DNA from: a phage
Direction: 5' to 3' (one strand)
Sequence record: PZ445551.1
Length of the DNA: 64,000 nt
In this document: positions 1 to 61,303 of the stretch, in pieces
Position numbering within the stretch: position 1 is the first letter of the stretch
Layout of the letters: each line of letters opens with the position of its first letter
Position numbers and translations under genes: made by a program
The notes under the pieces: generated by a model
Seen by the model: only the letters and a program-made list of their open reading frames with translations
Database searches by the model: none
What the model was told of the DNA's origin: nothing

Positions 1-115
1 AACAAGCAAAGAAACAACCGTTACCCGTGAGCGGGAAAATTATTGGTTATATATTGCAAGCATGATCGTAATCCTGGCAAAACAGCATAACGTGGCGTAA
101 TTAAGAGGAAGAAAC

Positions 116-253
116 ATGAACGCATCACAGCAGATCGAAAAATTCAACCGCAGCAAGGCGCGTAAAGATTGGAACGAAGAGATCACCAAAAAAGGCGACA
201 AGCGGAACAAAACAAAGAGAGATCGCAGCACAAAAAGATACTGGAACGAATAA
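116..253 (+). CDS. small basic protein (45 aa), not in ORF track
   Basis: ATG 116 after RBS aagaggaag; Lys/Arg-rich; followed by terminator hairpin. Confidence 0.4.
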   Translation: MNASQQIEKFNRSKARKDWNEEITKKGDKRNKTKRDRSTKRYWNE

Positions 254-259
254 CAAAAA

Positions 260-280
260 GGGCGCAATAAGCGCCCTTTT
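260..280 (+). terminator. rho-independent terminator
   Basis: gggcgc-aataa-gcgccc stem-loop followed by TTTT. Confidence 0.55.
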
Positions 281-370
281 AGCTTATATAGAGGCTTGTT
301 ACCCATAGGCAATGGTAACGCCAGGATAAGCCTATAAACCACGTTAGACAGCTTTACAGGAGCTTTAAAA

Positions 371-553
371 ATGAAATTAGACGAAATAAGCAAGGCACTA
401 GCCCAGGGGCAAAGGTTATGCGCCCGATATCGTGATCAATATGGCTTCATAACTAGCGGCGTGATCCTGGGGATTGAAGGCAATAAGATTTTTATTGACA
501 CGTTGAAAAACGTTGTATATAGTGACAATATAATCTCAATAAAACATATATGA
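371..553 (+). CDS. hypothetical protein (60 aa)
   Basis: track ORF; RBS caggag upstream. Confidence 0.5.
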   Translation: MKLDEISKALAQGQRLCARYRDQYGFITSGVILGIEGNKIFIDTLKNVVYSDNIISIKHI

Positions 554-561
554 GGCAAGAA

Positions 562-963
562 ATGAAAAAATTATTGATCGCTGGTTTAATCTCTTTTGGC
601 ATGGTTGGAACATCTAGCGCGGCGATATCCTCCACAGTAGCAGAATTAAGCGCCGTTGATGCAATGGAAAACGTCATGCTTATTAATAACGCGATCCCCG
701 ATGAAATCATGGAGGATTCACACATGATCGCTTATGGTGCTGTTACACAACTAACGGCAAAAATAGATAAATCTATTGTTAACGGCTTAAATGAAGATGT
801 GCCATGTGAAATTATTACCAGTGTGCTGACTACTCAAAATTTTACGCCGTGGTTAAAAAGTATTCAAAAAGTACACAGTACAGCCGCAGATCGTAGCAAT
901 GAAAAACTAGTGTCAGCACTTGCAACGTATACCCTAGCAAAATGCACCGAGATAAAAGATTGA
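562..963 (+). CDS. secreted/periplasmic hypothetical protein with signal peptide
   Basis: track ORF trimmed to MKKLLIAGLISFGMVGTSSA (signal-peptide-like); RBS gaggcaag. Confidence 0.55.
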   Translation: MKKLLIAGLISFGMVGTSSAAISSTVAELSAVDAMENVMLINNAIPDEIMEDSHMIAYGAVTQLTAKIDKSIVNGLNEDVPCEIITSVLTTQNFTPWLKSIQKVHSTAADRSNEKLVSALATYTLAKCTEIKD

Positions 964-1010
964 CAACATAGAAAGCACGTTATAAGATACACACAACAAA
1001 GGAGAACTAC

Positions 1011-1313
1011 ATGAACGGCATAGCTAAAACGTTTTTTCTTTTTTCTGGTGTAAATGATCCATCAATAAAAGTCGATAGTGTAAAAGAAAACAATACTATC
1101 ACCGCTAAATTGTTTCAAGATGAAACAAATAACGTGCTAATCATTAATCTTAAAGAAGTAACTAAAGGTTATTATACTATTGCTTACCATGCGATTTATC
1201 ATGCTGGTACTAGTGAGGAAGTGCAAACAAGCAACAACGAAAGCGCGGCGCTACCTGGTGATCTGGTGCTGGGCGTTATCAGTTTAATTGTCAATGATTT
1301 TTTTAAGGAGTAA
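1011..1313 (+). CDS. hypothetical protein (100 aa)
   Basis: track ORF; RBS aaggag 7 nt upstream. Confidence 0.55.
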   Translation: MNGIAKTFFLFSGVNDPSIKVDSVKENNTITAKLFQDETNNVLIINLKEVTKGYYTIAYHAIYHAGTSEEVQTSNNESAALPGDLVLGVISLIVNDFFKE

Positions 1314-1317
1314 AACC

Positions 1318-1413
1318 ATGCCCTATTTACATTTATTTTTCGGTATCTTATTGACAGGATCTTTTTTCTTCTGTATGCTTGTTTCTATTGTAAACCACGT
1401 TTTAAGACATTAA
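1318..1413 (+). CDS. small hydrophobic peptide (31 aa), not in track
   Basis: ATG 1318 after RBS aaggag; single predicted TM segment. Confidence 0.3.
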   Translation: MPYLHLFFGILLTGSFFFCMLVSIVNHVLRH

Positions 1414-1422
1414 GGAAACAGC

Positions 1423-1542
1423 ATGAAAATTATTCCCGTACAATATAGCGTAATAAATCCAGCATACGAGGAAGGAAGGAAAACAAGCATGGCTTTATGT
1501 TGTATTGCTACTATAGCCATGTTGTTATATATTGTGTTTTAA
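1423..1542 (+). CDS. small membrane peptide (39 aa), not in track
   Basis: ATG 1423 after RBS aaggaaac; hydrophobic C-terminus. Confidence 0.3.
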   Translation: MKIIPVQYSVINPAYEEGRKTSMALCCIATIAMLLYIVF

Positions 1543-1571
1543 TAGGTTTTATAGTTGTACGCTTTAAGGGC

Positions 1572-1627
1572 TTGACAATTTTTTGTTATGCTTTAAACTA
1601 TATCTTGAAAACGGCAAAGGCCGCAAA
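1572..1627 (+). promoter_or_regulatory. sigma70-like promoter (TTGACA-16-TAAACT) plus 5'-UTR hairpin cggc-aaag-gccg
   Basis: TTGACA at 1572-1577, -10 at 1594-1599, hairpin 1611-1627 upstream of ATG 1643. Confidence 0.4.
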
Positions 1628-1642
1628 CAAAAGGGTAAAATT

Positions 1643-1966
1643 ATGAAATCTGTGATCGGTGTTTATTTGGATAACTCTGATTTTTTCTATCATCGCGCTC
1701 GTTTCCTTGATGCGATTGAAATGATAGAATCAGGCTTTAAAGAGTATCGCCTTGCACATGATGACCTGGAAGCATTACAGGGCAATAGTGTTTTTACATT
1801 GCAAGCTAAAGCACTATGCAAAAGCCGGATCGACATTGCGAGCAAAAAGATAGAACGCGGCATGTCCTGGTTGCGCACCGCAGAAATCAACATGGGGCAA
1901 TGGTACGGCGAAAACTTAGAAAATAAACATACTTTTGTCAATGTAGAAAATATTGAAGATTATTGA
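1643..1966 (+). CDS. hypothetical protein (107 aa)
   Basis: track ORF 1583..1966 trimmed to Met with RBS aaaagggtaaaattATG. Confidence 0.5.
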   Translation: MKSVIGVYLDNSDFFYHRARFLDAIEMIESGFKEYRLAHDDLEALQGNSVFTLQAKALCKSRIDIASKKIERGMSWLRTAEINMGQWYGENLENKHTFVNVENIEDY

Positions 1967-2028
1967 TTGACAGCACACCTAACGGGTAGTATATTGTATC
2001 TCATAGAGCGGGGAAATGGTTTCCCCGC
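1967..2028 (+). promoter_or_regulatory. promoter + conserved 5'-UTR stem-loop cassette (PeSL-like), copy 1
   Basis: TTGACA 1967-1972, 17 nt spacer, TATATT 1990-1995; hairpin GCGGGGAAA-TGG-TTTCCCCGC 2008-2028. Confidence 0.6.
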
Positions 2029-2048
2029 CTTAAAAGAAGAGATAAGCT

Positions 2049-2333
2049 ATGAAGATCACAAAAGCACTTTCCAACTATGCAGCACGTCGCGGATTATGTT
2101 TAACCGTTGAAAATTTAGGGAAAGAAGATTTTTTGTGCTTTTGGGAGCTTGAGAATGATAATGAGTGGATCTTCTCTTATTCTATCTGCGAAGATCAAAA
2201 CGGTTGTTTATTAACCTGGCGCGGTAATATCTATTTACCGGAAGAAATCAAAGAAGAATTACCAGGCACGATCATGACTGAGAAACAGCTTAAGGAAGTG
2301 ATCAATTTTGTAGGGCAAAACATTAAAAAATAA
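2049..2333 (+). CDS. hypothetical protein (94 aa)
   Basis: track ORF downstream of promoter/hairpin cassette. Confidence 0.55.
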   Translation: MKITKALSNYAARRGLCLTVENLGKEDFLCFWELENDNEWIFSYSICEDQNGCLLTWRGNIYLPEEIKEELPGTIMTEKQLKEVINFVGQNIKK

Positions 2334-2334
2334 T

Positions 2335-2392
2335 TTGACACTAGGCAAACAACGTAGTAAAGTTTATCACATAGGGCGGCAATAGTGCCGCT
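2335..2392 (+). promoter_or_regulatory. promoter + conserved 5'-UTR stem-loop cassette, copy 2
   Basis: TTGACA 2335-2340, -10 TAAAGT 2358-2363, hairpin GGGCGGCAATAGTGCCGCTC 2374-2392. Confidence 0.55.
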
Positions 2393-2414
2393 CATAACAG
2401 AAGAGAAACAAATC

Positions 2415-2585
2415 ATGATCCCGACTATGTTTTATGTATCGCGCAAAGGTCACAATATTTTTTGGTCTGAAGATTTAAATGAAGCTATGACGTTTGCCCG
2501 TGATCGTGTCGCTATCGGTGGCGTTAACATCACTGTAACCGATGAAAACGGCATTGAATACTATAACGGCGACGATGAAGAGTAA
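2415..2585 (+). CDS. hypothetical protein (56 aa)
   Basis: track ORF 2385..2585 begins at GTG inside the hairpin; trimmed to ATG 2415 with RBS gaagag. Confidence 0.45.
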   Translation: MIPTMFYVSRKGHNIFWSEDLNEAMTFARDRVAIGGVNITVTDENGIEYYNGDDEE

Positions 2586-2592
2586 TCAACAA

Positions 2593-2610
2593 GGCGGGAT
2601 TAATCCCGCC
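2593..2610 (+). terminator. GC hairpin GGCGGGA-ttaa-TCCCGCC, terminator-like
   Basis: perfect 7-bp stem after stop of 2415..2585; weak T tract; stem sequence echoes the cassette hairpins. Confidence 0.35.
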
Positions 2611-2629
2611 TGTATTAAAGGGTAATATA

Positions 2630-2767
2630 ATGAAAACTTTCAACGCAACAGCCTCGACAATTGGTTATATTATTACAGTGCAAGCCGTTGACCTGGTAGC
2701 GGCAGCAAACAAGATTAAAAAGATGATCCCAACAGGCAGCGAATTTTCCGTTTGGGAAGTAAAATAA
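2630..2767 (+). CDS. small hypothetical protein (45 aa), not in track
   Basis: ATG 2630, in-frame stop 2765-2767; lies between two cassette units. Confidence 0.3.
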   Translation: MKTFNATASTIGYIITVQAVDLVAAANKIKKMIPTGSEFSVWEVK

Positions 2768-2770
2768 ATC

Positions 2771-2828
2771 TTGACAATAGTTTATTACTTGATAGAATGT
2801 ATTTCGTAGGGCGGCAATAGTGCCGCTC
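2771..2828 (+). promoter_or_regulatory. promoter + conserved 5'-UTR stem-loop cassette, copy 3
   Basis: TTGACA 2771-2776, -10 TAGAAT 2793-2798, hairpin GGGCGGCAATAGTGCCGCTC 2809-2828 (identical to copy 2). Confidence 0.6.
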
Positions 2829-2849
2829 ACAACTAAAAGAGAAATCATC

Positions 2850-3044
2850 ATGGCGCTTAAAAAATTAACAAGCAATACTCGTTGGGATGAAATCGACGGG
2901 GAAGTATACATTTTCGCCCGTAAACCAGGTGATCAAAAATGGTCAAAGGCTTTTACTTGCCACCCTGCAACAATAGATCTAATAAAAAGTAAAGGTTTAC
3001 GTGAAGCAGTAGCGAGAAGTTTACTGATCCCTTATAAAAAATAG
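2850..3044 (+). CDS. hypothetical protein (64 aa)
   Basis: track ORF trimmed to ATG 2850 after RBS aaaagagaaatc. Confidence 0.5.
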   Translation: MALKKLTSNTRWDEIDGEVYIFARKPGDQKWSKAFTCHPATIDLIKSKGLREAVARSLLIPYKK

Positions 3045-3107
3045 TTTGACAATATGCTGTTATCTGGTAAAGTGTACGACATAGGGCGGGGCAATAAGGC
3101 AACGCCC
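3045..3107 (+). promoter_or_regulatory. promoter + degenerate stem-loop cassette, copy 4
   Basis: TTGACA 3045-3050, -10 TAAAGT 3067-3072, GGGCGGGGCAATAAGGCAACGCCC variant hairpin. Confidence 0.45.
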
Positions 3108-3125
3108 ATTAATGAGGGTAGAATC

Positions 3126-3230
3126 ATGTTAGAGAAAATTTTCACGGTTGTAGTAGTTGGCCTGGCGTTATCGGTTGGATTGGTTGCAACTATGGCTAAC
3201 ATGATCCTATCTTCCCACGGTATTGGATAA
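3126..3230 (+). CDS. small membrane peptide (34 aa), not in track
   Basis: ATG 3126 after RBS gagggtagaatc; hydrophobic core VVVVGLALSVGLVATMA. Confidence 0.35.
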   Translation: MLEKIFTVVVVGLALSVGLVATMANMILSSHGIG

Positions 3231-3240
3231 GGTGAATCAA

Positions 3241-3456
3241 ATGATCACGAATAAGACAGGTAAAACAGAATTTTTACGCGGCTTGCAAATAGGTAAACCT
3301 GAGATCTGGCATTGCACTAAATCCGCGCATAATGAAATGAAAGATTTTACCGCTACTTTACAACGTGTTAAAATATCTATCACGCAGAAAAAAGCCTTGT
3401 TAGTAGTAGAAAACGAGATACCGCAAACCATTATTATTGTCGAGCGTACAGCATGA
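3241..3456 (+). CDS. hypothetical protein (71 aa)
   Basis: track ORF 3223..3456 trimmed to ATG 3241 with RBS aaggtg. Confidence 0.5.
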   Translation: MITNKTGKTEFLRGLQIGKPEIWHCTKSAHNEMKDFTATLQRVKISITQKKALLVVENEIPQTIIIVERTA

Positions 3457-3839
3457 AAACTGAAATCATTATTGAAATCATCAACGGTTATAAAGAAGCC
3501 TTTATTTTTGCTGAATCAGCCAGGGATCATGAAGGCTATTTTATTGATAACTTAGACGATTATGATTTTTCAGATCAAGCCCATCAGCGGATCATTCATG
3601 ACGTAGCGGCTTATTGTGATGCCAATGATGCTGCTATCTCTGAGGCAATGAGCGACGGCGCTACAGCAAACCAGATCGGGAATGATTTACATTTTACCCG
3701 TAACGGTCACGGCGTAGGCTTTTGGGATCGCCCTGAAATATACACTACTAACACCGCCAACCGCCTAACAAATGCAGCTAAATTAATGCCATCGGTGCAT
3801 GCTTACATTGGTGAAGATAATTTGATTTATATTGAATAA
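3453..3839 (+). CDS. hypothetical protein (128 aa)
   Basis: track ORF; ATGA start/stop overlap with upstream gene. Confidence 0.55.
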   Translation: MKTEIIIEIINGYKEAFIFAESARDHEGYFIDNLDDYDFSDQAHQRIIHDVAAYCDANDAAISEAMSDGATANQIGNDLHFTRNGHGVGFWDRPEIYTTNTANRLTNAAKLMPSVHAYIGEDNLIYIE

Positions 3840-3845
3840 AAAGTA

Positions 3846-3904
3846 TTGACACCGATCCCCCATATGGTATTATTTACCACGTAGGCGGGAAATGGTTTCC
3901 CGCC
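3846..3904 (+). promoter_or_regulatory. promoter + conserved 5'-UTR stem-loop cassette, copy 5
   Basis: TTGACA 3846-3851, -10 TATTAT 3868-3873, hairpin GGCGGGAAA-TGG-TTTCCCGCC 3884-3904. Confidence 0.6.
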
Positions 3905-3927
3905 AGGTAATCAAAAAGGTAAATACT

Positions 3928-4317
3928 ATGCGCAACCTGGTTTCTGTTTCTAACGTTGAAAAATTTCAATCCTTGCAGGGTATCGTTAACAACGTAGCGC
4001 CTTTTTTAGTCAATGGCTTGATTGCAAAGATGAAAAATAAACATCATGCGGCATGGTCTGCTTACTGCTTTGATAATGATGAAAAAGCGGCTGAAATGAT
4101 GTTAGATATGCTGTTAAATAGTGTAGAAACATCTTTACCGGAAAACATCGCAGAAGAGATCACCTATCGTTATAATATGGCGATCACTTACCAGGAGGTT
4201 GCGCAATTTAATATGATGGATGATGACGAACAACAGGATCAGGAAATGTTTTGGGAGTATGCAGATCGTCAATCGGCTTTTGATGAAAAGTTAGCGATGT
4301 ATTATAACGAATATTAA
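3928..4317 (+). CDS. hypothetical acidic protein (129 aa)
   Basis: track ORF 3892..4317 starts inside the hairpin loop; trimmed to ATG 3928. Confidence 0.5.
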   Translation: MRNLVSVSNVEKFQSLQGIVNNVAPFLVNGLIAKMKNKHHAAWSAYCFDNDEKAAEMMLDMLLNSVETSLPENIAEEITYRYNMAITYQEVAQFNMMDDDEQQDQEMFWEYADRQSAFDEKLAMYYNEY

Positions 4318-4333
4318 TACACGGTAAAAGAAA

Positions 4334-4357
4334 GGGGCGCACTAAGCGCCCTTTTTT
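4334..4357 (+). terminator. rho-independent terminator
   Basis: ggggcgc-actaa-gcgccc hairpin followed by TTTTTT. Confidence 0.65.
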
Positions 4358-4703
4358 GTATTCTTTTTTCACGATGGAAGTAACACGTAAAGAATAAACG
4401 TAAAAGGTGGTGTAAAACAGCCTAAAACCGATTATAACCGCTTAAACAAGGTAGTAATGACTAATCACCTTGCCAGGATGAAAAAGCTGTTATAAAGCTA
4501 TTTAGAGCGTTTAAAGCACATAGGAAATAATTTGCTTTTTATCTTGCCTTTTATCCTGCTTTTGATTATTATTATGGAACGGGCGGCACCTGGGGACAGG
4601 GGAAGGTAATCACCGGAAGATCCCGCTATATATTGATAGCTAATATCTATTAAACAACAAAACATCAAAGGAATAAACTATCAAATCTTTACAATTCTAC
4701 CTA

Positions 4704-4763
4704 TTGACACAGGATCACCCTTATAATAAGATGTATCCAGTAGGGCGGGAAATGGTTTCCCGC
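4704..4763 (+). promoter_or_regulatory. promoter + conserved 5'-UTR stem-loop cassette, copy 6
   Basis: TTGACA 4704-4709, 17 nt, TAAGAT 4727-4732; hairpin GCGGGAAATGGTTTCCCGC 4745-4763. Confidence 0.6.
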
Positions 4764-4782
4764 TTGATATAGGAATCATACC

Positions 4783-5016
4783 ATGATCGAACAAATTAAA
4801 AGCACTACACCAAATGTTAACGGCAATGTTTCACACTTTATCGGGGATAATGAAAGGGGTACACCATACGCCGCCGTAACCGTGCAACCTAATGGCGATT
4901 ATTGGTTTACCGTGTACGGATCATATTCTTTCGGACGCCCGGCACATGATAAGATCTTGCAAGCGGTTAAGCCTACTGGGAAGAATATCACAGCAGAAAA
5001 ATTTTATAAAAAATAG
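4783..5016 (+). CDS. hypothetical protein (77 aa)
   Basis: track ORF; RBS taggaatc. Confidence 0.55.
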   Translation: MIEQIKSTTPNVNGNVSHFIGDNERGTPYAAVTVQPNGDYWFTVYGSYSFGRPAHDKILQAVKPTGKNITAEKFYKK

Positions 5017-5091
5017 CTTGCTTTATAGTCTCTGTTAATTTATAGTTATCGTGTAGGGCAAACAATTTTAAACGGTAAACGAGGAATCACC

Positions 5092-5475
5092 ATGAGCAAT
5101 ATCAGCAACCTGGCGGCTACTGTAAACGGTAAAGATTTTAACGGCGCTGTAGATCGTGATCCTATGTGGTGCTTATCAGTGTTTAAAGGCGATCTGGTTG
5201 AAGTTAGAACAACCGAAGGGTATAGCGATGATTATAAATGCGAGATCCATTTACACAACTGGTACACGGGTAAAACTTATGCGCTGAATCATGCGTTTAT
5301 CGGCAAGGTTGAATATAGAGAAATGATCGACGAAGAAACGGGGCAAGATTTTAGCGAGCATGTTTATATTCGTTCCGAGACATTAGCCGAACGTTTGATC
5401 GAGAAAATGAAAGCAAAAAATAAAATTAATTTATCTCATTGGATTGATATAACAAACGATCCAGCTTATCAGTAA
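5092..5475 (+). CDS. hypothetical protein (127 aa)
   Basis: track ORF; RBS acgaggaatc. Confidence 0.55.
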   Translation: MSNISNLAATVNGKDFNGAVDRDPMWCLSVFKGDLVEVRTTEGYSDDYKCEIHLHNWYTGKTYALNHAFIGKVEYREMIDEETGQDFSEHVYIRSETLAERLIEKMKAKNKINLSHWIDITNDPAYQ

Positions 5476-5490
5476 ATAACATTTCATACC

Positions 5491-5516
5491 AGGGCGCACA
5501 AAGCGCCCTTTCTTTT
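5491..5516 (+). terminator. rho-independent terminator
   Basis: agggcgc-acaa-gcgccct hairpin followed by T-rich run. Confidence 0.6.
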
Positions 5517-5722
5517 TACCTAAATAAAGATGATAGCTTTTACCTATCAAAAACGTTCACCGAAAAAAGTGAATAGATCGCGGTATCGAGCTAATCAAGG
5601 AGCAGATGAACAACCATACCATGAAGATCATAAGGCGCTTACAACGTGTTTTAGACCGCTTATTTTTAATTTCTCAATGTAACTATCTGGCAAAAACAGC
5701 CTTTTTCTTGTCTTTCCTCTTA

Positions 5723-5740
5723 AATGATAATCATTCTTAT
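5723..5740. promoter_or_regulatory. Fur-box-like site AATGATAATCATTCTTAT
   Basis: near match to the enterobacterial Fur box GATAATGATAATCATTATC. Confidence 0.35.
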
Positions 5741-5780
5741 TTATAGCTGATTATTTATGCAATAAACTGAATAATGCAAT

Positions 5781-5797
5781 AATGATAATCATTCTTA
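5781..5797. promoter_or_regulatory. Fur-box-like site AATGATAATCATTCTTA
   Basis: second copy, preceded by ATAATGCAAT. Confidence 0.35.
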
Positions 5798-6090
5798 ACT
5801 TATGACCATCTAACCTATAAAATAATAAGTTATCTAACTAAATTAAAACTAATTATCTCACCTTTATTTATAACTTACTGTTACTATCTCATTGATAACC
5901 TTATATTAAACAACAATAACCAATATAAATCATTACTAAGCTAAATATAATCTATCTAACCTTTAAAACTATAACTATAATCTATCGAATTGTTGCACAA
6001 AGTAACTATTAAATTGTTAGTAACATTACTAAATAATTAATATCCTATCTATTTATGATCTAATCTTTATCTTCCTATCTATTACCTAAA

Positions 6091-6121
6091 TAATCATTTC
6101 ATACAGTAATCATTTCATACA
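6091..6121. repeat. tandem direct repeat AATCATTTCATACA x2
   Basis: two adjacent near-identical 15-16 bp units. Confidence 0.5.
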
Positions 6122-6157
6122 ATAATTATAACAAGAAATATAATTCGCAAGCGTATC

Positions 6158-6192
6158 ATTAGCAGCCTATGCCGGACACATAGGCGGCTAAT
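6158..6192. repeat. 14-bp inverted repeat ATTAGCAGCCTATG / CATAGGCGGCTAAT around 7-nt spacer
   Basis: one mismatch; GC-rich island in AT-rich context. Confidence 0.5.
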
Positions 6193-6663
6193 AATAACGC
6201 AACTACACACCCCACATAATAACCATCACCGATAGTTATTATTTGTGCTTATGTAGCTTGCAACAATTGCAAGCGCAACAATATACATGGTATATTGTAT
6301 CCCTTACATTGTTGCGGTGCGTTATTATTAGCTAATGTTTAGAACATTGGCTATAATATAAGCTAAGTAATAAGCTATGCAATAATAAACATGGTGAATA
6401 ATGACATTGATGATCATAATGCGCCACCTTCCAGGGGGCGCTATGTGAACACAAAGAAATCTTTCTTGTCAAGAAAAAATATTGCCATTATTGCGCAAAA
6501 TTATTTATATCTGAATAGATGATTTTTCATACTATTGCCCCATATAACATACCTCATTTGTTGAGCATAGTTATAGCCTATTTGTTGAGCCTACTTTCTT
6601 AAAAGCGCAATAAATCAGAATTATCTTGATTTTTAGTCTGTTTTATAGTATAGAAAGTATGCA

Positions 6664-6679
6664 AATGATAATCATTATC
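6664..6679. promoter_or_regulatory. Fur-box-like site AATGATAATCATTATC
   Basis: 16/16 identity to the 3' 16 nt of the Fur-box consensus. Confidence 0.4.
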
Positions 6680-6849
6680 AGCTATCTTCCACGGGTAGCA
6701 CTATTTCACGCCAGATCATTTCATTTGGCAAGGTGTATATAGATGTTTAGACTTGCCAAGCCATTGATTTACTTAGAATTTATCTGTTTTGTTGTGAGTA
6801 GAGCCTTTCTTGCTCAGAAAATAATCAAAAGTCTTATAAGTCATTGAAT

Positions 6850-6874
6850 GATAATGCAAATGATAATTATTCTC
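6850..6874. promoter_or_regulatory. Fur-box-like site GATAATGCAAATGATAATTATTCTC
   Basis: repeat of the ATAATGCAA-ATGATAAT unit seen at 5771-5797. Confidence 0.35.
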
Positions 6875-7236
6875 ATTGATATTTGAGGGGGACGGTCGGC
6901 AGAAATCGGGGGGCGCTGAAAATCGCGTTAAGCACCTCTCGCAAGCGAGCAGTATTTTGCGGCAAGTTATTGATATTATTGGCTTTACGCTTATGAAAAG
7001 GGGGTGTGTCGAAATAAATCGGGTATACCGGAAAATTTTTGTGGCATAGATATTTATTTGTCTATATTATGTACAAAAGGGTGTGTTAAAAATATTAGGT
7101 ATATATAGAATAATTGATAGGGAAATCCTATACTAATTCCTCCATTAATGATGTTTCTATGTTACTGTTCTTGTAACAGATGAAAAGACGCTGTATGATG
7201 TGTGGCATGAAACGTAAATTTATAAAGGAGTCTGAT

Positions 7237-7596
7237 ATGTGTGTTCCTCTTAGCAGTCCACTGCTGTTAGAATTTTACAAAGCATGGATGGAAGATCATT
7301 CCTCAATGCATCGTGAGAATGTTGGTTTGTGTAATTGCCTTATGGATTACCTGGCAACCACTATGTCAAAGAAAAAACCTACGGAAGAAGATATAGAATA
7401 TTTCAAGATGGTTCGTAGCAAAACGCTGGAAGAGATGAAACTGCAATTCACGTGTGCTGGGCTATCCTCCTTTCTACCCTTTAATTATGATCTTCTGTGT
7501 TATGAAGATGAAGGTAAGACACATTCTTGCCATACCAACCCAAAGAGATTGCAGTGGGTGAAAGATCGTATTGCCGATTCATGCAAGGGTGTGTAG
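7237..7596 (+). CDS. paralog family member 1 (LLxFYxxW...GLCxCL...QFxxAGL...LPFN...RxQWVxDRI)
   Basis: track ORF 7180..7596 trimmed to ATG 7237 after RBS aaggag; shares motif with 7743, 10034 and 11312 genes. Confidence 0.55.
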   Translation: MCVPLSSPLLLEFYKAWMEDHSSMHRENVGLCNCLMDYLATTMSKKKPTEEDIEYFKMVRSKTLEEMKLQFTCAGLSSFLPFNYDLLCYEDEGKTHSCHTNPKRLQWVKDRIADSCKGV

Positions 7597-8641: not shown

Positions 8642-8857
8642 ATGAAAAGCATTAGGGTGTGTATCGAAAATAATTGTGGTTATCTGGGGTTGACACACGT
8701 CGCTTTCCCTCTTATATTGGATGCCGATATAGCTTACAGCGGAGTTGCTTATGTGTCATTCAAAACAATGAGCCAAGTACCTGGCTGGAATTGGGAAGTG
8801 GTTGATGTTGTTGAAGGAGAAGACTATGTTTTCCTTCCACACGAATATACAGTTTAA
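8642..8857 (+). CDS. hypothetical protein (71 aa)
   Basis: track ORF 8597..8857 trimmed to ATG 8642 immediately after upstream stop. Confidence 0.45.
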   Translation: MKSIRVCIENNCGYLGLTHVAFPLILDADIAYSGVAYVSFKTMSQVPGWNWEVVDVVEGEDYVFLPHEYTV

Positions 8858-31592: not shown

Positions 31593-32093
31593 TTAGTTAT
31601 AAGCGTCTAATGTTCCAGTTTTAAGTACCTGAATTACACGCTCTGCGCGATTAGGCGTTTGGCGATACCATTTACTTTTACGTAAATTTATAGAGGCTTG
31701 AGTATAATATGAATTACTCACTAAAGTCAAGCTATTTTTGAAAGATTCTGCACCTTTCAATCCCATTTGAAATACCATATTGATAATAGCCATTTTACGA
31801 TTAGGACTTACTTTATCGTAAATAGGAGATAATATGGTACTTGAATGGATTTGTTGTATCGCTTTCTTTACGTCACTTTCAAAGATTCTTCTAGCTTCCG
31901 CTTCAGTAATAACTCCATTGGTTTTTCTACCTACTAAGTTATCAAGAATGCGTATAGCTTCTGCTTTATCTTTGAGTTTTGTCAGAAGGTGTCCAATACC
32001 AACTGTCCAATACCCTTCGGTATCAGGATATACAGTTAGCTTTAGTCCTTCATCAAAACGTAACATATCAAACACATCAACTACTTTAGCCAT
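31593..32093 (-). CDS. T4-type lysozyme (endolysin, GH24)
   Basis: MLRFDEGLKLTVYPDTEGYWTVGIGHLLTK matches the T4 e catalytic E/D/T region. Confidence 0.9.
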   Translation of the reverse strand: MAKVVDVFDMLRFDEGLKLTVYPDTEGYWTVGIGHLLTKLKDKAEAIRILDNLVGRKTNGVITEAEARRIFESDVKKAIQQIHSSTILSPIYDKVSPNRKMAIINMVFQMGLKGAESFKNSLTLVSNSYYTQASINLRKSKWYRQTPNRAERVIQVLKTGTLDAYN

Positions 32094-32105
32094 GTTTTCC
32101 TTATA

Positions 32106-32249
32106 TTAGTCGCCCTCCCCATGATCTAGCTCTTGAAACAGTAGGTGTTCAGGAGACATTTCACGTTTAGGCTTCGTCTTTTTAGTTTGGGACTTAAGCT
32201 CTGTTGCCAAAGCACGAGAAAAGATTTTACGTTTCTGTTTACCTTTCAT
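32106..32249 (-). CDS. small basic protein (47 aa), not in track
   Basis: ATG 32249 after RBS ggag; Lys-rich. Confidence 0.3.
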   Translation of the reverse strand: MKGKQKRKIFSRALATELKSQTKKTKPKREMSPEHLLFQELDHGEGD

Positions 32250-32253
32250 ATTG

Positions 32254-32520
32254 TTACTCCGCAATCTGAGCCATGAATTCACGTAGTTCAGAAAAACCTC
32301 CTACGTGGGTTAGCTGTTCACCATCTTCCACAAAAATCTGAGGAAATGTGCGTGGTAGAACACCTGTTTTCTCTAAAACCAGATTCTGAATCTGATCTAA
32401 AGAATAGTCTTCATCTAAGGTAAGGTATTTAAAATCCTGTTCACGCTGTTCTAGTAGAATCTTAGCGTTAGTGCAGAAAGGACAATTTGGTTTACCGTAG
32501 ATAATAAAATTCATTTTCAC
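32254..32520 (-). CDS. glutaredoxin/thioredoxin-like (NrdC/NrdH-type)
   Basis: CPFC active-site motif near N-terminus; 88 aa. Confidence 0.75.
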   Translation of the reverse strand: MKMNFIIYGKPNCPFCTNAKILLEQREQDFKYLTLDEDYSLDQIQNLVLEKTGVLPRTFPQIFVEDGEQLTHVGGFSELREFMAQIAE

Positions 32521-33347
32521 TCCTTGTTTAAAAGTATAGTTAAAGTTCTTACAATACCGCTATCAACACTTCGCGGATTTAAAGTAGGATCTGTTTTTAA
32601 ATAAGATGTTGCTGGTCTGACTGCTTTTGAATTATAGGTTGAAGCAGATACAGGATTAACTGTAACAGATAAATCTATAACAAGAAATATCTTTCGTGCA
32701 AAATCATACCAAGAAATATAATCTGCACCTGCATAGTGTACAATTTTACTATTTACACCATCTTTTACAAGTTTAAAAATTGTTTCTGCAAGATCAGGTG
32801 CATAAGTAGGACATGATAAATGATCACATACTACATTAAATTCTTTTTGACCACCGTTGTAGCGTTCCAACATAGTTTTCAAAAAGTTATGTCCAAATTC
32901 ACTATAAACAGAAGCTGTTCGGATAATAAGTGCTGTAGGACAAACTGTTTGTACTAAAGTTTCACCTAATTGTTTACTATAACCGTAGGTGTTCAAGGGG
33001 TTTGTTTTACTATCTTCTGTACCAGCAACATGCCCATCAAAAACATAGTCTGTTGAAATATGTACAAACTGTATCAGTAAATCATTACATGCTTTGGCAA
33101 TGTTTGTTGCACCGTATGCATTAACATTTATACAGGTGTTAACATCTTCTTCAGCTTTATCTACTGCCGTGTAAGCCGCACAATTCACAACAACATCAGG
33201 CACATGCTGTACAAGACTATTCATAACATCTTTAAAGTTGGTAATGTCTACATCACTTGCTTCAATCAAAATAACATCTTCGGGCGCAACTTTTGCCAAA
33301 GACTGTCCTAATTGACCTTTTGAACCAAAGACTAAAAATTTTGTCAA
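32517..33347 (-). CDS. rmlD: dTDP-4-dehydrorhamnose reductase
   Basis: N-terminal GxxGQLG Rossmann motif; position after rmlC. Confidence 0.75.
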   Translation of the reverse strand: MTKFLVFGSKGQLGQSLAKVAPEDVILIEASDVDITNFKDVMNSLVQHVPDVVVNCAAYTAVDKAEEDVNTCINVNAYGATNIAKACNDLLIQFVHISTDYVFDGHVAGTEDSKTNPLNTYGYSKQLGETLVQTVCPTALIIRTASVYSEFGHNFLKTMLERYNGGQKEFNVVCDHLSCPTYAPDLAETIFKLVKDGVNSKIVHYAGADYISWYDFARKIFLVIDLSVTVNPVSASTYNSKAVRPATSYLKTDPTLNPRSVDSGIVRTLTILLNKE

Positions 33348-33898
33348 AATATGATCTCCTTTAGTGTTTTGGCTTCCTGATCTTTTTGTGACAAGATAGG
33401 TTTAAAATTAATATCATTAAAGATTAAATCAAAACCCCAATCTATATTGATATCTGGATCATTCCACGCAAGACTACACTCTGAAGTCGGATCGTAATAT
33501 TCTGTACATTTGTATTCAAAATCAGCAATATCACTAATCACAACAAAGCCATGAGCGAAACCAGGAGGAATCCAAAATTGTGTTTTATTCTTTTCAGATA
33601 AGAGAACACCTACCCATTCTCCAAATGTTGGACTACCAACCCTAATATCTACAGCAACATCATAAACTTCACCACGAACACAGCGTACTAACTTCCCTTG
33701 TGGGTTTTTCTTTTGAAAATGAAGCCCACGTAGAACTCCTCGGATAGAACGTGAATGGTTATCTTGGACAAAGTTTTGTTTACCTATGTATTGATCATAT
33801 AAAGCCTGATTAAAACTTTCTAAGAAAAAGCCACGTTCATCTCCATAAACGTCAGGTTGAATGATCAACAAGTCTTCGATTTTTGTTGCTTGAATCAT
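33344..33898 (-). CDS. rmlC: dTDP-4-dehydrorhamnose 3,5-epimerase
   Basis: cupin-type RGLHFQ region; 184 aa. Confidence 0.8.
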   Translation of the reverse strand: MIQATKIEDLLIIQPDVYGDERGFFLESFNQALYDQYIGKQNFVQDNHSRSIRGVLRGLHFQKKNPQGKLVRCVRGEVYDVAVDIRVGSPTFGEWVGVLLSEKNKTQFWIPPGFAHGFVVISDIADFEYKCTEYYDPTSECSLAWNDPDINIDWGFDLIFNDINFKPILSQKDQEAKTLKEIIF

Positions 33899-33910
33899 TT
33901 AATTCCCCTT

Positions 33911-34780
33911 TTATTTTAATTTAAGTAAATACTTACCGTAGTCTGTTTTACTTAAAACCTCTCCAGAACTTTTTACAGAGTCTAAAGTAATCCATTCATT
34001 TTTAAAAGCAATCTCTTCCAGGCATGCAACCTTCATACCTTGTTGCTTCTCTATTGCATGAACAAATTGAGATGCTTCCATAAGACTTTCATGTGTTCCT
34101 GTATCCAGCCAAGTGAAACCTCTTCCTAGCTTACAGACACGTAAAGCCTTTTCTTTCCAGTACATCTCATTTATATCTGTGATCTCTAACTCCCCTCTAG
34201 CAGAAGGCTTAACGCTTTTAGCTTTCTGTATAACAGAATTATCGTAAAAGTACAAGCCTGTAATTGCATAGTTGCTTTTTGGTGCTTTTGGTTTTTCTTC
34301 AATACTTACCACTGTACCTTCAGAATCAAACTCAACAACACCAAATCTTTCAGGATCATTTACGTGATACCCAAAAATATTAGCTCCACCATTCTTTTCA
34401 ATATGTTCTTTAGCAGAATCTAAAATGCTACCAAAACTCTGACCAAAGAATAAATTATCACCTAGCACAAGTGCTACAGAATCTTCACCAATAAAGTTCT
34501 CACCAATAATAAACGCTTCTGCTAAACCTTTTGGGCTATCCTGTACTGCATACTGTAGGGAAATACCAAAAGAAGAACCGTCACCTAGAAGATTTACAAA
34601 ATTAATTTGATCTTCTGGTGTTGTAATTATTAGTATTTCCCTAATTCCAGAAAGCATTAGGACAGAGAGTGGATAATAAATCATAGGTTTATCGTAAATT
34701 GGTAATAGTTGTTTACTAACCCCTTTAGTAACTGGGTAAAGTCTTGTTCCACTACCACCTGCTAAGATAATACCTTTCAT
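33911..34780 (-). CDS. rmlA: glucose-1-phosphate thymidylyltransferase
   Basis: [19 protein letters not shown]-terminal signature. Confidence 0.85.
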
Positions 34781-59824: not shown

Positions 59825-59853
59825 TTGACATTTACTTAGTTTTTTGTTATAGT
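59825..59853 (+). promoter_or_regulatory. sigma70-like promoter TTGACA-17-TATAGT
   Basis: read directly; 11 nt upstream of the tRNA-like element. Confidence 0.5.
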
Positions 59854-59864
59854 TACTATGAAAA

Positions 59865-59946
59865 CGGGGTGTATCTCACCTGACTTCTAATCAGGCGTTA
59901 ACCGAGTAATTGGAGTATGCAGGTTCGAATCCTGTCACCCCGGCCA
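59865..59946 (+). tRNA. atypical tRNA-Arg(TCT)-like element lacking a D-arm
   Basis: perfect acceptor CGGGGTG/CACCCCG, T-arm GCAGG-TTCGAAT-CCTGT, anticodon hairpin CCTGA-CTTCTAA-TCAGG, but only 7 nt between acceptor and anticodon stem and a 23-nt insert before the T-arm. Confidence 0.4.
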
Positions 59947-60009
59947 AAAAGTTTTAAAAACTACTTGACAAGCAAGATAGTTTTATGTTAGATTTAAAGT
60001 ATAATAACT

Positions 60010-60099
60010 GGAAGGTAGGGCGCAGCGGTGCGCAACCAGGTTTGAACCCTGGCCCATTGTAGCGATACGGTGATGGTTCGACTCCATTATCTTCCTCCA
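60010..60099 (+). tRNA. tRNA-Ser(TGA), type II
   Basis: acceptor GGAAGGT/ATCTTCC, anticodon loop TTTGAAC, long variable arm, CCA encoded. Confidence 0.75.
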
Positions 60100-60117
60100 A
60101 ATTCTCTTAGGAGCTTT

Positions 60118-60270
60118 ATGAATTATAAAACTATTGGACAGGTTGTTACCGGAGTTAAGATTGTAAATAATAAAGTTGTTTATGAGTATTCTAATCTTCA
60201 ACAATCTGAAGATGGTAAGAATATTCGTATGGTAAAAACAGAACAAAAAGATTCCGGTTGTTTTGAATAA
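60118..60270 (+). CDS. small hypothetical protein (50 aa) embedded in tRNA array
   Basis: track ORF 60070..60270 trimmed to ATG 60118 after RBS aggag so it no longer overlaps tRNA-Ser. Confidence 0.45.
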   Translation: MNYKTIGQVVTGVKIVNNKVVYEYSNLQQSEDGKNIRMVKTEQKDSGCFE

Positions 60271-60278
60271 TTAAAAAC

Positions 60279-60364
60279 GGTAGATTGGTGAAATGGTAGC
60301 CACAACAGTTTGCTAAACTGTCGTCGGAAACGGCGTGTAGGTTCAAGTCCTACATCTACCGCCA
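60279..60364 (+). tRNA. tRNA-Ser(GCT), type II
   Basis: acceptor GGTAGAT/ATCTACC, anticodon loop TTGCTAA, long variable arm, T-arm GTAGG-TTCAAGT-CCTAC. Confidence 0.8.
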
Positions 60365-60498
60365 AGTTATCTTTAATGTAGCTTGTAATCTTACTTTAGC
60401 AGAGTAAATCTTCGGCAAGTGGCGGTAACCACTTTACCGATACCCCAATACTTCATAGCTAAGTGCCGCAAACACTGGCTATTTTAAAGATAATTTAT

Positions 60499-60574
60499 AC
60501 ATCGTTAGCTTAGTTGGTAGAGCAAGGGGCTTTTAACTCCAAGGTCGAAGGTTCGAATCCTTCACGATGTACCA
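60499..60574 (+). tRNA. tRNA-Lys(TTT)
   Basis: acceptor ACATCGT/ACGATGT, D-arm GCTT..GAGC, anticodon loop CTTTTAA, T-arm GAAGG-TTCGAAT-CCTTC. Confidence 0.85.
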
Positions 60575-60579
60575 AACAC

Positions 60580-60666
60580 GTAGGTATCGCATAGCGGCAA
60601 TTGCTGGAGACTGTAAATCTCCTGCCCTTCGGGGCTTCGTTGGTTCGAGTCCAACTACCTGCACCA
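60580..60666 (+). tRNA. tRNA-Tyr(GTA), type II
   Basis: anticodon arm GGAGA-CTGTAAA-TCTCC, variable-arm hairpin GCCCC-TTCG-GGGC, T-arm GTTGG-TTCGAGT-CCAAC. Confidence 0.8.
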
Positions 60667-60673
60667 AATTAAA

Positions 60674-60758
60674 GATGGATTGGCCTAGTGGTTGGGCGAC
60701 GGACTGTTAATCCGTGAACGAAAGTTCTAGCAAGGTTCAAATCCTTGATCCATCGCCA
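60674..60758 (+). tRNA. tRNA-Asn(GTT) with unusually long (15-nt) variable arm
   Basis: acceptor GATGGAT/ATCCATC, anticodon arm ACGGA-CTGTTAA-TCCGT, variable hairpin GAAC-GAAA-GTTC, T-arm CAAGG-TTCAAAT-CCTTG. Confidence 0.7.
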
Positions 60759-60837
60759 AATAGTGCTTGTAGAGTTAATAGAAACCTCTAGAATTTTCTA
60801 GAATTGTAGGTATCAAATCCTACCAAGCAAATATTTT

Positions 60838-60912
60838 GCTCCTATCGTATAACGGCTATTACGGTTGCCTTGTAAGCAACTTATCAGGGTTCGAGTCCTT
60901 GTGGGAGCACCA
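60838..60912 (+). tRNA. tRNA-Thr(TGT)
   Basis: acceptor GCTCCTA/TGGGAGC, anticodon arm GTTGC-CTTGTAA-GCAAC, T-arm CAGGG-TTCGAGT-CCTTG. Confidence 0.8.
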
Positions 60913-60935
60913 ATTTTAACTCTAAAGGAGTGTAT

Positions 60936-61259
60936 GTGACAGAAAAAGAGTTAGAGAAATATTTTAATATCAATGTTTTCGATGGTTTTGATGATATTGA
61001 AGATGTTGAAAGATATTATGAAGTAGAGTTAGATAAGGATAACATTGTAATTCTTTCTGCCACTTATGATTGTGCATATTATGAAGGCGAATCTCACGTT
61101 TATTTTTATGATATGAAAACATCTTTGTTTTATGAAGTACACGCATATCATTGTTCTTGTTATGGCTTAGAAGGTCAGTGGGAACCTGAAGAAATAGGTG
61201 ATTTGGACTTTACTATTGCATATCTAAACAGACGTGGTTCATCTACTATTTTAAAATAA
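60936..61259 (+). CDS. hypothetical acidic protein (about 107 aa) embedded in tRNA array
   Basis: track ORF 60930..61259; likely GTG start at 60936, 5 nt after RBS aaggag. Confidence 0.5.
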   Translation: MTEKELEKYFNINVFDGFDDIEDVERYYEVELDKDNIVILSATYDCAYYEGESHVYFYDMKTSLFYEVHAYHCSCYGLEGQWEPEEIGDLDFTIAYLNRRGSSTILK

Positions 61260-61273
61260 ATATCAAAAGCCTC

Positions 61274-61303
61274 TTGACAAAGGGGCTAATAATATGTTAG
61301 AGT
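61274..61303 (+). promoter_or_regulatory. sigma70-like promoter TTGACA-18-TAGAGT
   Basis: read directly; about 12 nt upstream of tRNA-Gly. Confidence 0.5.

Follow-up and report, generated by a model that had tools for sequence, protein, structure and literature searches.

A repeated promoter-hairpin cassette in front of small early-type genes of phi92-group coliphages

The DNA considered here is a window of 64,000 nt from the phage sequence record PZ445551.1 (coordinates are window positions, negative ones lying upstream of the window start), and its subject is a repeated intergenic cassette in which a sigma-70 promoter is followed by a GC-rich hairpin and the start of a small gene. The 4-kb region that carries the cassettes is 100% identical to the minus strand of the Escherichia phage VivaForever genome (PP925843.1, 146,096 bp; record position = 94105 - w, where w is the window position) and 95-98% identical to many Justusliebigvirus phages (phi92 group, Stephanstirmvirinae); about 225 deposited relatives matched in all. 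The array sits among small co-directional hypothetical genes, the equivalents of phi92 gp226-gp248, and the cassettes are restricted to this one early-type region of small ORFans. All ten products tested fall into PHROGs with unknown function, and no Pfam domain scored above the cut-off in them. The small-gene block terminates at an AT-rich non-coding tract where Salmonella phage UAB_1 has an annotated right-end direct terminal repeat.

An alignment of 15 units shows a module of about 85-90 nt which occupies the entire intergenic gap. It consists of an A-rich tract containing the stop codon of the upstream gene, a -35 TTGACA, a 16-17-nt spacer, a -10 TAnnnT, a discriminator GTATYAC, RUAGGGCGG, the hairpin, an A-rich linker, a Shine-Dalgarno (SD) sequence and ATG. 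The upstream stop codon lies 0-8 nt before the -35. The promoters match 10-11 of the 12 sigma-70 consensus positions, have an A-rich tract upstream and, in three units, a TG extension. In the six strong units of the window, 7 nt separate the -10 from RTAGGGCGG, with the variants TAGAGCGG at 1967 and TAGGCGGG at 3846. The hairpins are GC-rich, 7-9 bp long and fold at -14 to -16 kcal/mol (z = -2.5 to -5.4); the dominant stems are type A, GGCGGGAAA-UGG-UUUCCCGCC, and type B, GGGCGGCA-AUAG-UGCCGCUC. Hairpin and ATG are separated by a linker whose median length is 20 nt; it contains 53% A and 17% U, compared with 34% and 27% regionally, and the ribosome-binding site (RBS) is predicted to be largely unpaired (median 0.73). 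An earlier note on this DNA had listed at least six repeated promoter/hairpin units, and all six were recovered by sequence reading and promoter scan, the fourth with its -35 at 3046; the second and third copies do have identical hairpins, as it had claimed (Table 1).

Table 1. Cassettes, promoters and a terminator in and around the array (window coordinates; ORF, open reading frame)
Feature	Position (strand)	Components	Remarks
Strong hairpin-less sigma-70 promoters, same region	495-523, 960-988, 1351-1379 (+)		
Weak cassette	1572-1645 (+)	-35 1572-1577; -10 TAAACT 1594-1599; 4-bp hairpin CGGC-AAAG-GCCG 1612-1623; ATG 1643	-6 kcal/mol, z -1.8; without RTAGGGCGG
Cassette, type A	1967-2051 (+)	-35 1967-1972; -10 TATATT 1990-1995; ATAGAGCGG; hairpin GCGGGGAAA-UGG-UUUCCCCGC 2008-2028; ATG 2049 (94-aa ORF 2049-2333)	Covariance model hit 2003-2033, E = 2.7e-7
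Cassette, type B	2335-2417 (+)	-35 2335-2340; -10 TAAAGT 2358-2363; ATAGGGCGG; hairpin GGGCGGCA-AUAG-UGCCGCUC 2374-2393; ATG 2415 (56-aa ORF 2415-2585)	z -5.4; PHROG profile covered 1-56
Promoterless module head	2587-2632 (+)	Hairpin GGCGGGA-UUAA-UCCCGCC 2593-2610 right after stop 2583-2585; SD; ATG 2630 (45-aa ORF 2630-2767)	Promoterless hairpin conserved in 6 relatives
Cassette, type B	2771-2852 (+)	-35 2771-2776; TG-extended -10 TAGAAT 2793-2798; GTAGGGCGG; hairpin 2809-2828 (identical to 2374-2393); ATG 2850 (64-aa ORF 2850-3044)	
Cassette, type D	3046-3128 (+)	-35 3046-3051; -10 TAAAGT 3068-3073; ATAGGGCGG; hairpin GGGCG(14-nt loop)CGCCC 3084-3107; ATG 3126 (34-aa ORF)	z -4.0; ORFs 3241-3456 and 3453-3839 follow the 34-aa ORF without a promoter of their own
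Cassette, type A	3846-3930 (+)	-35 3846-3851; TG-extended -10 TATTAT 3868-3873; GTAGGCGGG; hairpin GGCGGGAAA-UGG-UUUCCCGCC 3884-3904; SD and ATG 3928 (129-aa ORF 3928-4317)	E = 2.1e-7; PHROG profile covered 1-129
T-tailed terminator of another family	4329-4357 (+)	GGGCGC-N5-GCGCCC and T-run	Terminator scan
Cassette, type A	4704-4785 (+)	-35 4704-4709; -10 TAAGAT 4727-4732; GTAGGGCGG; hairpin GCGGGAAA-UGG-UUUCCCGC 4745-4763; ATG 4783 (77-aa ORF 4783-5016)	
Degenerate cassette	5018-5094 (+)	TTGCTT 5018-5023; 17 nt; TATAGT 5041-5046; GTAGGGCAAAC; no hairpin; ATG 5092 (127-aa ORF 5092-5475)	No fold

Enrichment over shuffled sequence had been proposed as a test of the motif. The composite pattern TTGACA-N16/17-TAnnnT-N7-RTAG(G)GCGG followed by a GC hairpin has 5 matches in the 64-kb window against 0.00 expected from 100 shuffles, whereas the octamer TAGGGCGG alone is not enriched there (13 observed, 12.4 expected), so that the signal resides in the combination. 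Under the strict pattern the 146-kb VivaForever genome has 9 matches, all on one strand and clustered within about 9 kb (record 89357-98371), and none in the other 100 kb. The same region is singled out by a covariance model (R1) which was built from 22 diverse hairpins with 3-nt loops and contains no promoter information: in a scan of both strands of the 146 kb, each of its 9 hits at E < 1e-3 lies in the array region and on the same strand. When a looser scan, the covariance model and direct reading are taken together, the genome holds at least 16 promoter-plus-hairpin units, at -4266, -3910, -3459, -2428, -1638, -1220, -902, -602, -338, 1572 (weak), 1967, 2335, 2771, 3046, 3846 and 4704. At least nine cassettes thus lie just upstream of the window; the degenerate unit at 5018 and the promoterless hairpin at 2593-2610 are outside this count. 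Apart from the three strong hairpin-less promoters of the array region, others without a hairpin are located further downstream, at 8690, 9669, 11832 and 15336. A search of window positions 1-7500 against Rfam gave no family at E <= 1. Matches to the composite pattern were also met in IMG/VR outside the phi92 and rV5 groups; their number is, by a rough estimate, at about chance level for a 17-base pattern given the size of the collection, one of them is a promoter in front of a tRNA, and they were not used as evidence of a wider distribution.

The hairpin is held at a fixed place after the promoter. Position statistics were compiled from 73 distinct cassettes of 11 phage loci, which give the post--10 consensus G-T-A-T-Y-A-C7-R8-U9-A10-G-G-G-C. 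Position 7 is C in 58 of the 73, position 8 a purine in 64 and position 9 T/U in 61, and the first paired base is mostly the 11th nucleotide after the -10, i.e., +4 of the predicted transcript. All 11 VivaForever hairpins examined in this respect lie downstream of the -10, starting 9-13 nt after it and ending about 30 nt after it. Of the 88 covariance model hits at the 11 loci, 80 follow a consensus promoter, the first paired base lying 6-13 nt (mode 11) past the end of the -10; six of the remaining eight are orthologues of the promoterless hairpin at 2593. On the + strand no cassette hairpin is followed by a T-run (A-rich sequence is found instead) and none is flagged by the terminator scan, so an intrinsic terminator on this strand was rejected. 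Two further candidates were set aside. The stems of 7-9 bp are too short for an RNase III site, and the resemblance of CAC-ATAGGG to the T7-type promoter core CACTATAGGG is taken as coincidence, as the VivaForever annotation contains no RNA polymerase gene and the sigma-70 hexamers are near-perfect.

The same layout recurs in Phapecoctavirus (about 15 units in phiWec186 and about 10 in phAPEC8_ev052) and in the Vequintavirinae phages W70 and EduardKellenberger, making the hairpin element common to two subfamilies of large myoviruses of E. coli, Salmonella and Cronobacter. In these other groups the position is constant and the stems frequently differ, as in GCCGCA-AUCG-UGCGGC (type B mirrored), GGGGAGAA-UAG-UUCUCCCC, GGGGCG-ACAAG-CGCCCC and GGGCAAGC...GCAAGCCC. 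Pairing is retained with compensatory changes across Justusliebigvirus, Phapecoctavirus and Vequintavirinae. A MAFFT alignment of mixed types (A2) put the stems with 3-nt and 4-nt loops out of register and was replaced by two loop-anchored alignments (A3, 22 sequences; A4, 21 sequences) and a model-made one (A5, 45 distinct rows). All three mix paralogues, and their sequences were chosen or fitted for folding. Paired cells amount to 91.4% in A3, 90.5% in A4 and 92.5% in A5, compared with 73.3%, 70.3% and 74.9% in the respective shuffles. Eight of the nine pairs have changes on both sides (A3 and A5), the observed covariation score was reached by none of 500 shuffles, and the signal collapses when the partner is slid by 1-3 columns. 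A5 contains 21 G.U pairs against 7 A.C pairs, which favours an RNA of the + strand over a site in duplex DNA. The hairpin is a promoter-coupled, strand-specific repeat under structural constraint. The suggestion of the earlier note that the hairpins are RNA elements is thereby strengthened by their -10-tied position, the stem covariation, the excess of G.U over A.C and the absence of U-tails.

The genes behind the cassettes differ between close relatives. BLAST comparison of the VivaForever early region with seven of them, whose flanks are 96-98% identical, revealed 16 distinct breakpoints, of which nine fall inside the cassettes, which cover 20% of the region (binomial P = 0.0014). The locus 4704-5092 exists in four forms (P, P' and P'' denote promoters, g genes): P-g5092 in Antha and PATM, P-hairpin-g4783-P'-g5092 in VivaForever, Nernie and Paula, P''-gX-P-g5092 in UAB_1, and P''-gX-P-hairpin-g4783-P'-g5092 in ESCO8. 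Their joints lie within the common -35..GTAGGGC block, and in Antha and PATM the leader of the 5018 unit is placed behind a full promoter of the 4704 type. Phage outra lacks exactly the unit 2771-3044. A deletion in UAB_1, joined at GGGGCGG, has linked an upstream promoter's leader with hairpin B of the -4266 cassette. As judged from such alignments, close relatives gain, lose and swap whole hairpin-SD-gene modules at the cassettes, in line with the earlier proposal of early-gene shuffling: the indels and replacements between them are bounded by cassettes. The near-identity of the -35..+10 block in all copies suggests that the cassettes act as recombination points.

The hairpin at 2593-2610 had been read as a recurrence of the cassette stem in the form of a terminator-like hairpin. 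A related hairpin is present indeed; its stem is not identical, it has no promoter, and it has no T-tail on the + strand, the terminator scan flagging 2592-2611 on the - strand only. In place of the 45-aa gene 2630-2767 and this hairpin, relatives including Nernie and Paula have a 270-nt gene and another hairpin, joined on the right within the spacer of cassette 2771. From these comparisons, hairpin 2593 travels with its gene as a promoterless module. In a 137-kb IMG/VR contig (L012, 6540-6677) the same 45-aa gene stands behind a full promoter cassette with a truncated hairpin, an arrangement that suggests exchange of a single-gene module between phage groups.

'Solo' promoter-plus-hairpin units without a gene were found in outra, in W70 and at window -2428. 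Such units (L005 16073-16215, corresponding to window -2428..-2286; L035 3100-3215; L041 8323-8440) contain no ORF and are followed by a second consensus promoter within about 80 nt; they may be remnants of excised modules or may give rise to a short non-coding leader RNA.

The hairpins also bear on the annotation of the genes. As the earlier note observed, the mechanically called ORF starts at 2385 (GTG), 2820 (GTG) and 3892 (ATG) fall inside hairpins, and its view that the true starts lie downstream is backed by PHROG profile coverage and by existing annotations. Paula is annotated with the ATGs at 2415, 2850 and 3928, each preceded by an SD, as starts, and profile coverage begins at residue 1 for the starts at 2415 and 3928. 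The ESCO8 annotation, also drawn upon for the downstream starts, retains the in-hairpin start for genes of the 2415 and 2850 type. Annotated GTG starts of the 2385/2820 type inside hairpins occur in the orthologues of ESCO8, outra and UAB_1, and VivaForever CDS0170 (3892-4317) was deposited with its start at ATG 3892, in the hairpin loop, where Paula uses the SD-preceded ATG 3928. Several deposited gene starts inside hairpins should thus be moved downstream.

Cassettes of a comparable kind are known from the T4-like phages RB49/phi1, PST/T4 and nt-1/KVP40 as promoter-early-stem-loop (PeSL) cassettes (Arbiol et al., 2010, PMC2839356; Comeau et al., 2014, PMC4122927). They combine sigma-70-like early promoters, AT-rich upstream tracts, GC-rich stem-loops and an SD with a start codon, and are associated with hyperplastic ORFan regions, indels and mini-circles (PMC2839356; PMC4122927). 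The units described here share with them an intergenic length of about 100 nt, a stop codon in an AT-rich tract, a near-consensus sigma-70 promoter, a GC-rich stem-loop, SD and start, as well as the concentration of many copies among small ORFans and the indels and replacements in close relatives that end at units. They differ in lineage (Stephanstirmvirinae and Vequintavirinae here, Straboviridae for PeSLs), and no homology to PeSLs in sequence turned up, no search having been aimed at it. They also differ in where the stem-loop lies. By definition, the stem-loop of a PeSL precedes the transcription start of its own unit: it is located upstream of the promoter, inside it or overlapping it, with five variable subclasses. 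When the same promoter and hairpin script was applied to 100 kb of phi1 and to VivaForever, 23 of the 29 promoter-associated hairpins of phi1 overlapped the promoter, two were upstream and four downstream, while in VivaForever 11 out of 11 were downstream. A hairpin downstream of the promoter would be part of the unit's own transcript, unlike that of a PeSL so defined. Furthermore, the PeSL stem-loop is a demonstrated terminator/attenuator, whereas the cassette hairpin lacks a U-tract and its function is a prediction, and the conserved initial transcribed motif RTAGGGCGG is a feature of the present cassettes in which they depart from PeSLs. The resemblance to PeSLs proposed earlier consequently holds for architecture and evolutionary behaviour and fails for the stem-loop, which is always downstream of the -10 and has no U-tract. 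Given this failure and the unrelated lineage, the cassettes should be regarded as an analogue or variant of the PeSL and not as a member by homology. The literature searched yielded no link between PeSL-type cassettes and the phi92, phAPEC8 or rV5 phages, nor any mapped transcripts of Stephanstirmvirinae; a promoter stem-loop is not described in the Felix O1 paper. Clustered sigma-70-like early promoters were described in rV5 (PMC3606486) and in Certrevirus CB7/CR3 (PMC7344957); these Vequintavirinae arrays resemble the present one in their consensus host-type promoters, UP-like A-tract and location in a region of short hypothetical ORFs, and neither paper (PMC3606486; PMC7344957), searched for stem-loops and hairpins, reports a post-promoter stem-loop or a link to gene shuffling.

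We propose that the cassettes are PeSL-like modular early-expression units whose hairpin is an RNA element of the 5' leader, acting as mRNA stabiliser and/or insulator of the RBS, and we infer this role with a probability of about 0.5. E. coli RNA polymerase favours starting at a pyrimidine-purine step 7-8 nt after the -10. The host polymerase would accordingly be expected to start at the conserved Y7-R8 step, 8 nt after the -10, and each short early mRNA would open with about three unpaired nucleotides (R-U-A), followed by the hairpin. The latter may slow the 5'-end-dependent decay by RppH and RNase E and may insulate the unstructured A-rich RBS from the upstream sequence context, while recombination in the conserved block would exchange modules, as was proposed for the PeSLs of T4-like phages. 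RppH and RNase E need the 5' end to carry no fewer than two unpaired nucleotides, three or more being preferred; RppH, in addition, disfavours a pyrimidine at position 2 and is blocked by a 5'-terminal stem-loop (PMC8833179). A decay-resistant leader with a context-independent RBS agrees with the conserved U at +2, the shortness of the tail, the hairpin and the low U content of the linker. Hairpins of the ompA 5' UTR (hp1), papA and the T7 gene 10 leader are described as 5'-terminal stabilisers (Emory, Bouvet and Belasco, 1992, cited in PMC3997798; PMC6146998). Like these, the cassette hairpin is short and stable, is predicted to lie close to the 5' end, is followed by an unstructured A/U-rich tract and an SD, and may have a stem that is free to vary as long as it is paired. 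Differences are the predicted 5' tail of 3-4 nt (0-2 nt in the known cases), the presence of at least 16 copies in one genome with a conserved 5' arm, and a stabilising effect that is so far predicted.

Several observations weigh against this interpretation. The transcription start is placed by consensus distance, and a 3-4-nt tail, as obtained with a start at position 8, is still usable by RppH and RNase E, so that the hairpin may protect only in part. Seven phages have retained hairpin 2593, in two sequence versions, with no promoter, which points to a role also, or only, inside longer transcripts. Strong promoters of the same region (495, 960 and 1351) do without a hairpin, and Antha and PATM have a natural hairpin-less leader for gene 5092. 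Paralogous copies, and register shifts of G/C-rich stems in loop-anchored, fold-selected alignments, account for part of the covariation, and neither pairing nor a purely thermodynamic hairpin would require the degree of conservation seen in the 5' arm GGGCGG and the apical AAURGU. As for the shuffling, whole-gene indels survive only if they end in intergenic DNA, i.e., in a cassette, so the breakpoint enrichment is partly expected from selection and is by itself no proof of cassette-mediated recombination.

The hairpin might instead be a terminator or attenuator of transcription from the upstream unit, preventing tandem promoters from summing along the array, in which case its place in its own transcript would be incidental. 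In favour of this, PeSL stem-loops that lack a classic U-tract lowered read-through into lacZ to the same degree as rrnB T1 (PMC2839356), the units are packed head to tail with the upstream stop so close to the next -35, the conserved promoterless hairpin 2593 directly follows a stop codon, and the annotators of Paula and PATM labelled several cassette hairpins as terminators. We nevertheless find this explanation unlikely. The cassette hairpins have neither a T-run nor a scan flag on the + strand, and three genuine T-tailed terminators in the same region belong to another family. A terminator also has no reason to keep a fixed distance from the -10 of the next promoter (the phi1 stem-loops are variable and mostly within the promoter), and one placed after a promoter would halt the transcripts of its own unit as well. 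The terminators in question, at 256-280, 4329-4357 and 5491-5509, form a separate repeat family with the common design GGGCGC-A(N3)A-GCGCCC and a T-run; the latter two are the only + strand flags of the scan, and 256-280 is flagged on the - strand, reading as a terminator on the opposite strand.

Alternatively, RUAGGGCGG and the hairpin with its AAURGU apex might form the site of a phage or host RNA-binding factor that jointly controls the early transcripts through timed shut-off or decay, translation, or polymerase modification of the boxB/put kind. The GGGCGG arm and AAURGU are near-invariant in types A and B and into Vequintavirinae, exceeding what pairing needs, the set is limited to one temporal or positional gene class, and the position relative to the start is fixed. 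Yet functional-looking variants have unrelated loops or stems (GGGGCG-ACAAG-CGCCCC, GGGGC-AAC-GCCCC, the 14-nt loop of type D), stem length and loop size vary, Rfam gives no match, no candidate binding protein was found among the neighbouring products, all of which are PHROGs of unknown function, and common descent with recombinational homogenisation explains the conservation equally. The boxB hairpin of the lambda and P22 nut sites has a defined pentaloop and a partner protein, N, and the HK022 put element is a two-hairpin RNA of about 70 nt. The cassettes resemble these in being small promoter-proximal RNA hairpins of phage early transcripts and differ from them in their varying loops and lack of an Rfam match; moreover, as each cassette gene has its own promoter, antitermination is hardly needed. 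We consider such a site quite improbable. The same low probability is given to an idea in which the hairpin, with its invariant RUAGGGCGG and AAURGU apex, would be more than a passive stabiliser: an RNA-binding factor or nuclease of the phage or the host, dedicated to this task, would recognise it as the common operator of an 'early regulon' and turn about 16 tiny host-takeover genes on or off together; if this were true, the module-borne hairpin would put any newly captured gene under the same temporal control. Least of all do we favour an element acting at the DNA level (an operator of a dimeric protein, a cruciform or a recombination site) or a functionless passenger of a duplicated promoter repeat, both of which seem very unlikely. 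A palindrome at +4..+25 does occupy a classic operator position, recombination junctions fall in the adjoining conserved block, and many copies are near-identical paralogues. However, arms of 5-10 bp and loops of 3-14 nt that differ by type with pairing kept are the signature of a folded single strand, G.U is tolerated above A.C, and a second subfamily has kept the structure on stems that differ, which a neutral passenger would not be expected to do.

Beyond the last cassette gene, the AT-rich non-coding tract 5520-7170 contains four AAATGATAATCATTCTTA-like repeats (5722, 5780, 6663 and 6858). Compared with the Fur-box consensus of E. coli, GATAATGATAATCATTATC, the stretches 5778-5796 and 6661-6679 have 2-3 mismatches (3 matches where 0.06 are expected), and sites of an iron regulator near the genome end are possible. 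The tract also includes tandem 24-mers (6549-6596) and tandem 16-mers (6091-6122), and the right-end direct terminal repeat of UAB_1 maps to about 6565-6930. Between 5600 and 7100 the VivaForever record lists many very short coding sequences (93-141 nt) on both strands inside this repeat tract, most of which are probably not genes. At the other end of the window (59825-61300), sigma-70 consensus promoters at 59825, 59965 and 61274 lie directly before a tRNA cluster (record 31904-34381) and have no cassette hairpin. Nineteen records labelled 'Campylobacter phage' (e.g., MG065639, A150, 146 kb, unannotated) are about 95% identical to this region; the host label is doubtful, and they may be contaminant or co-isolated coliphages.

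With about 16 near-isogenic promoter/leader units per genome, including natural hairpin-less, promoter-less and gene-less variants, these phages offer a series in which the effects of 5'-proximal hairpins can be tested, and early ORFans can be engineered or deleted safely at the boundaries of the cassettes. If our interpretation of the cassettes is true, portable promoter cassettes for shuffling early host-takeover genes, so far described in T4-like phages, would extend to unrelated coliphages, the relatives of phi92, phAPEC8 and rV5, and in these therapeutically popular phages the stem-loop would have shifted into the transcript.

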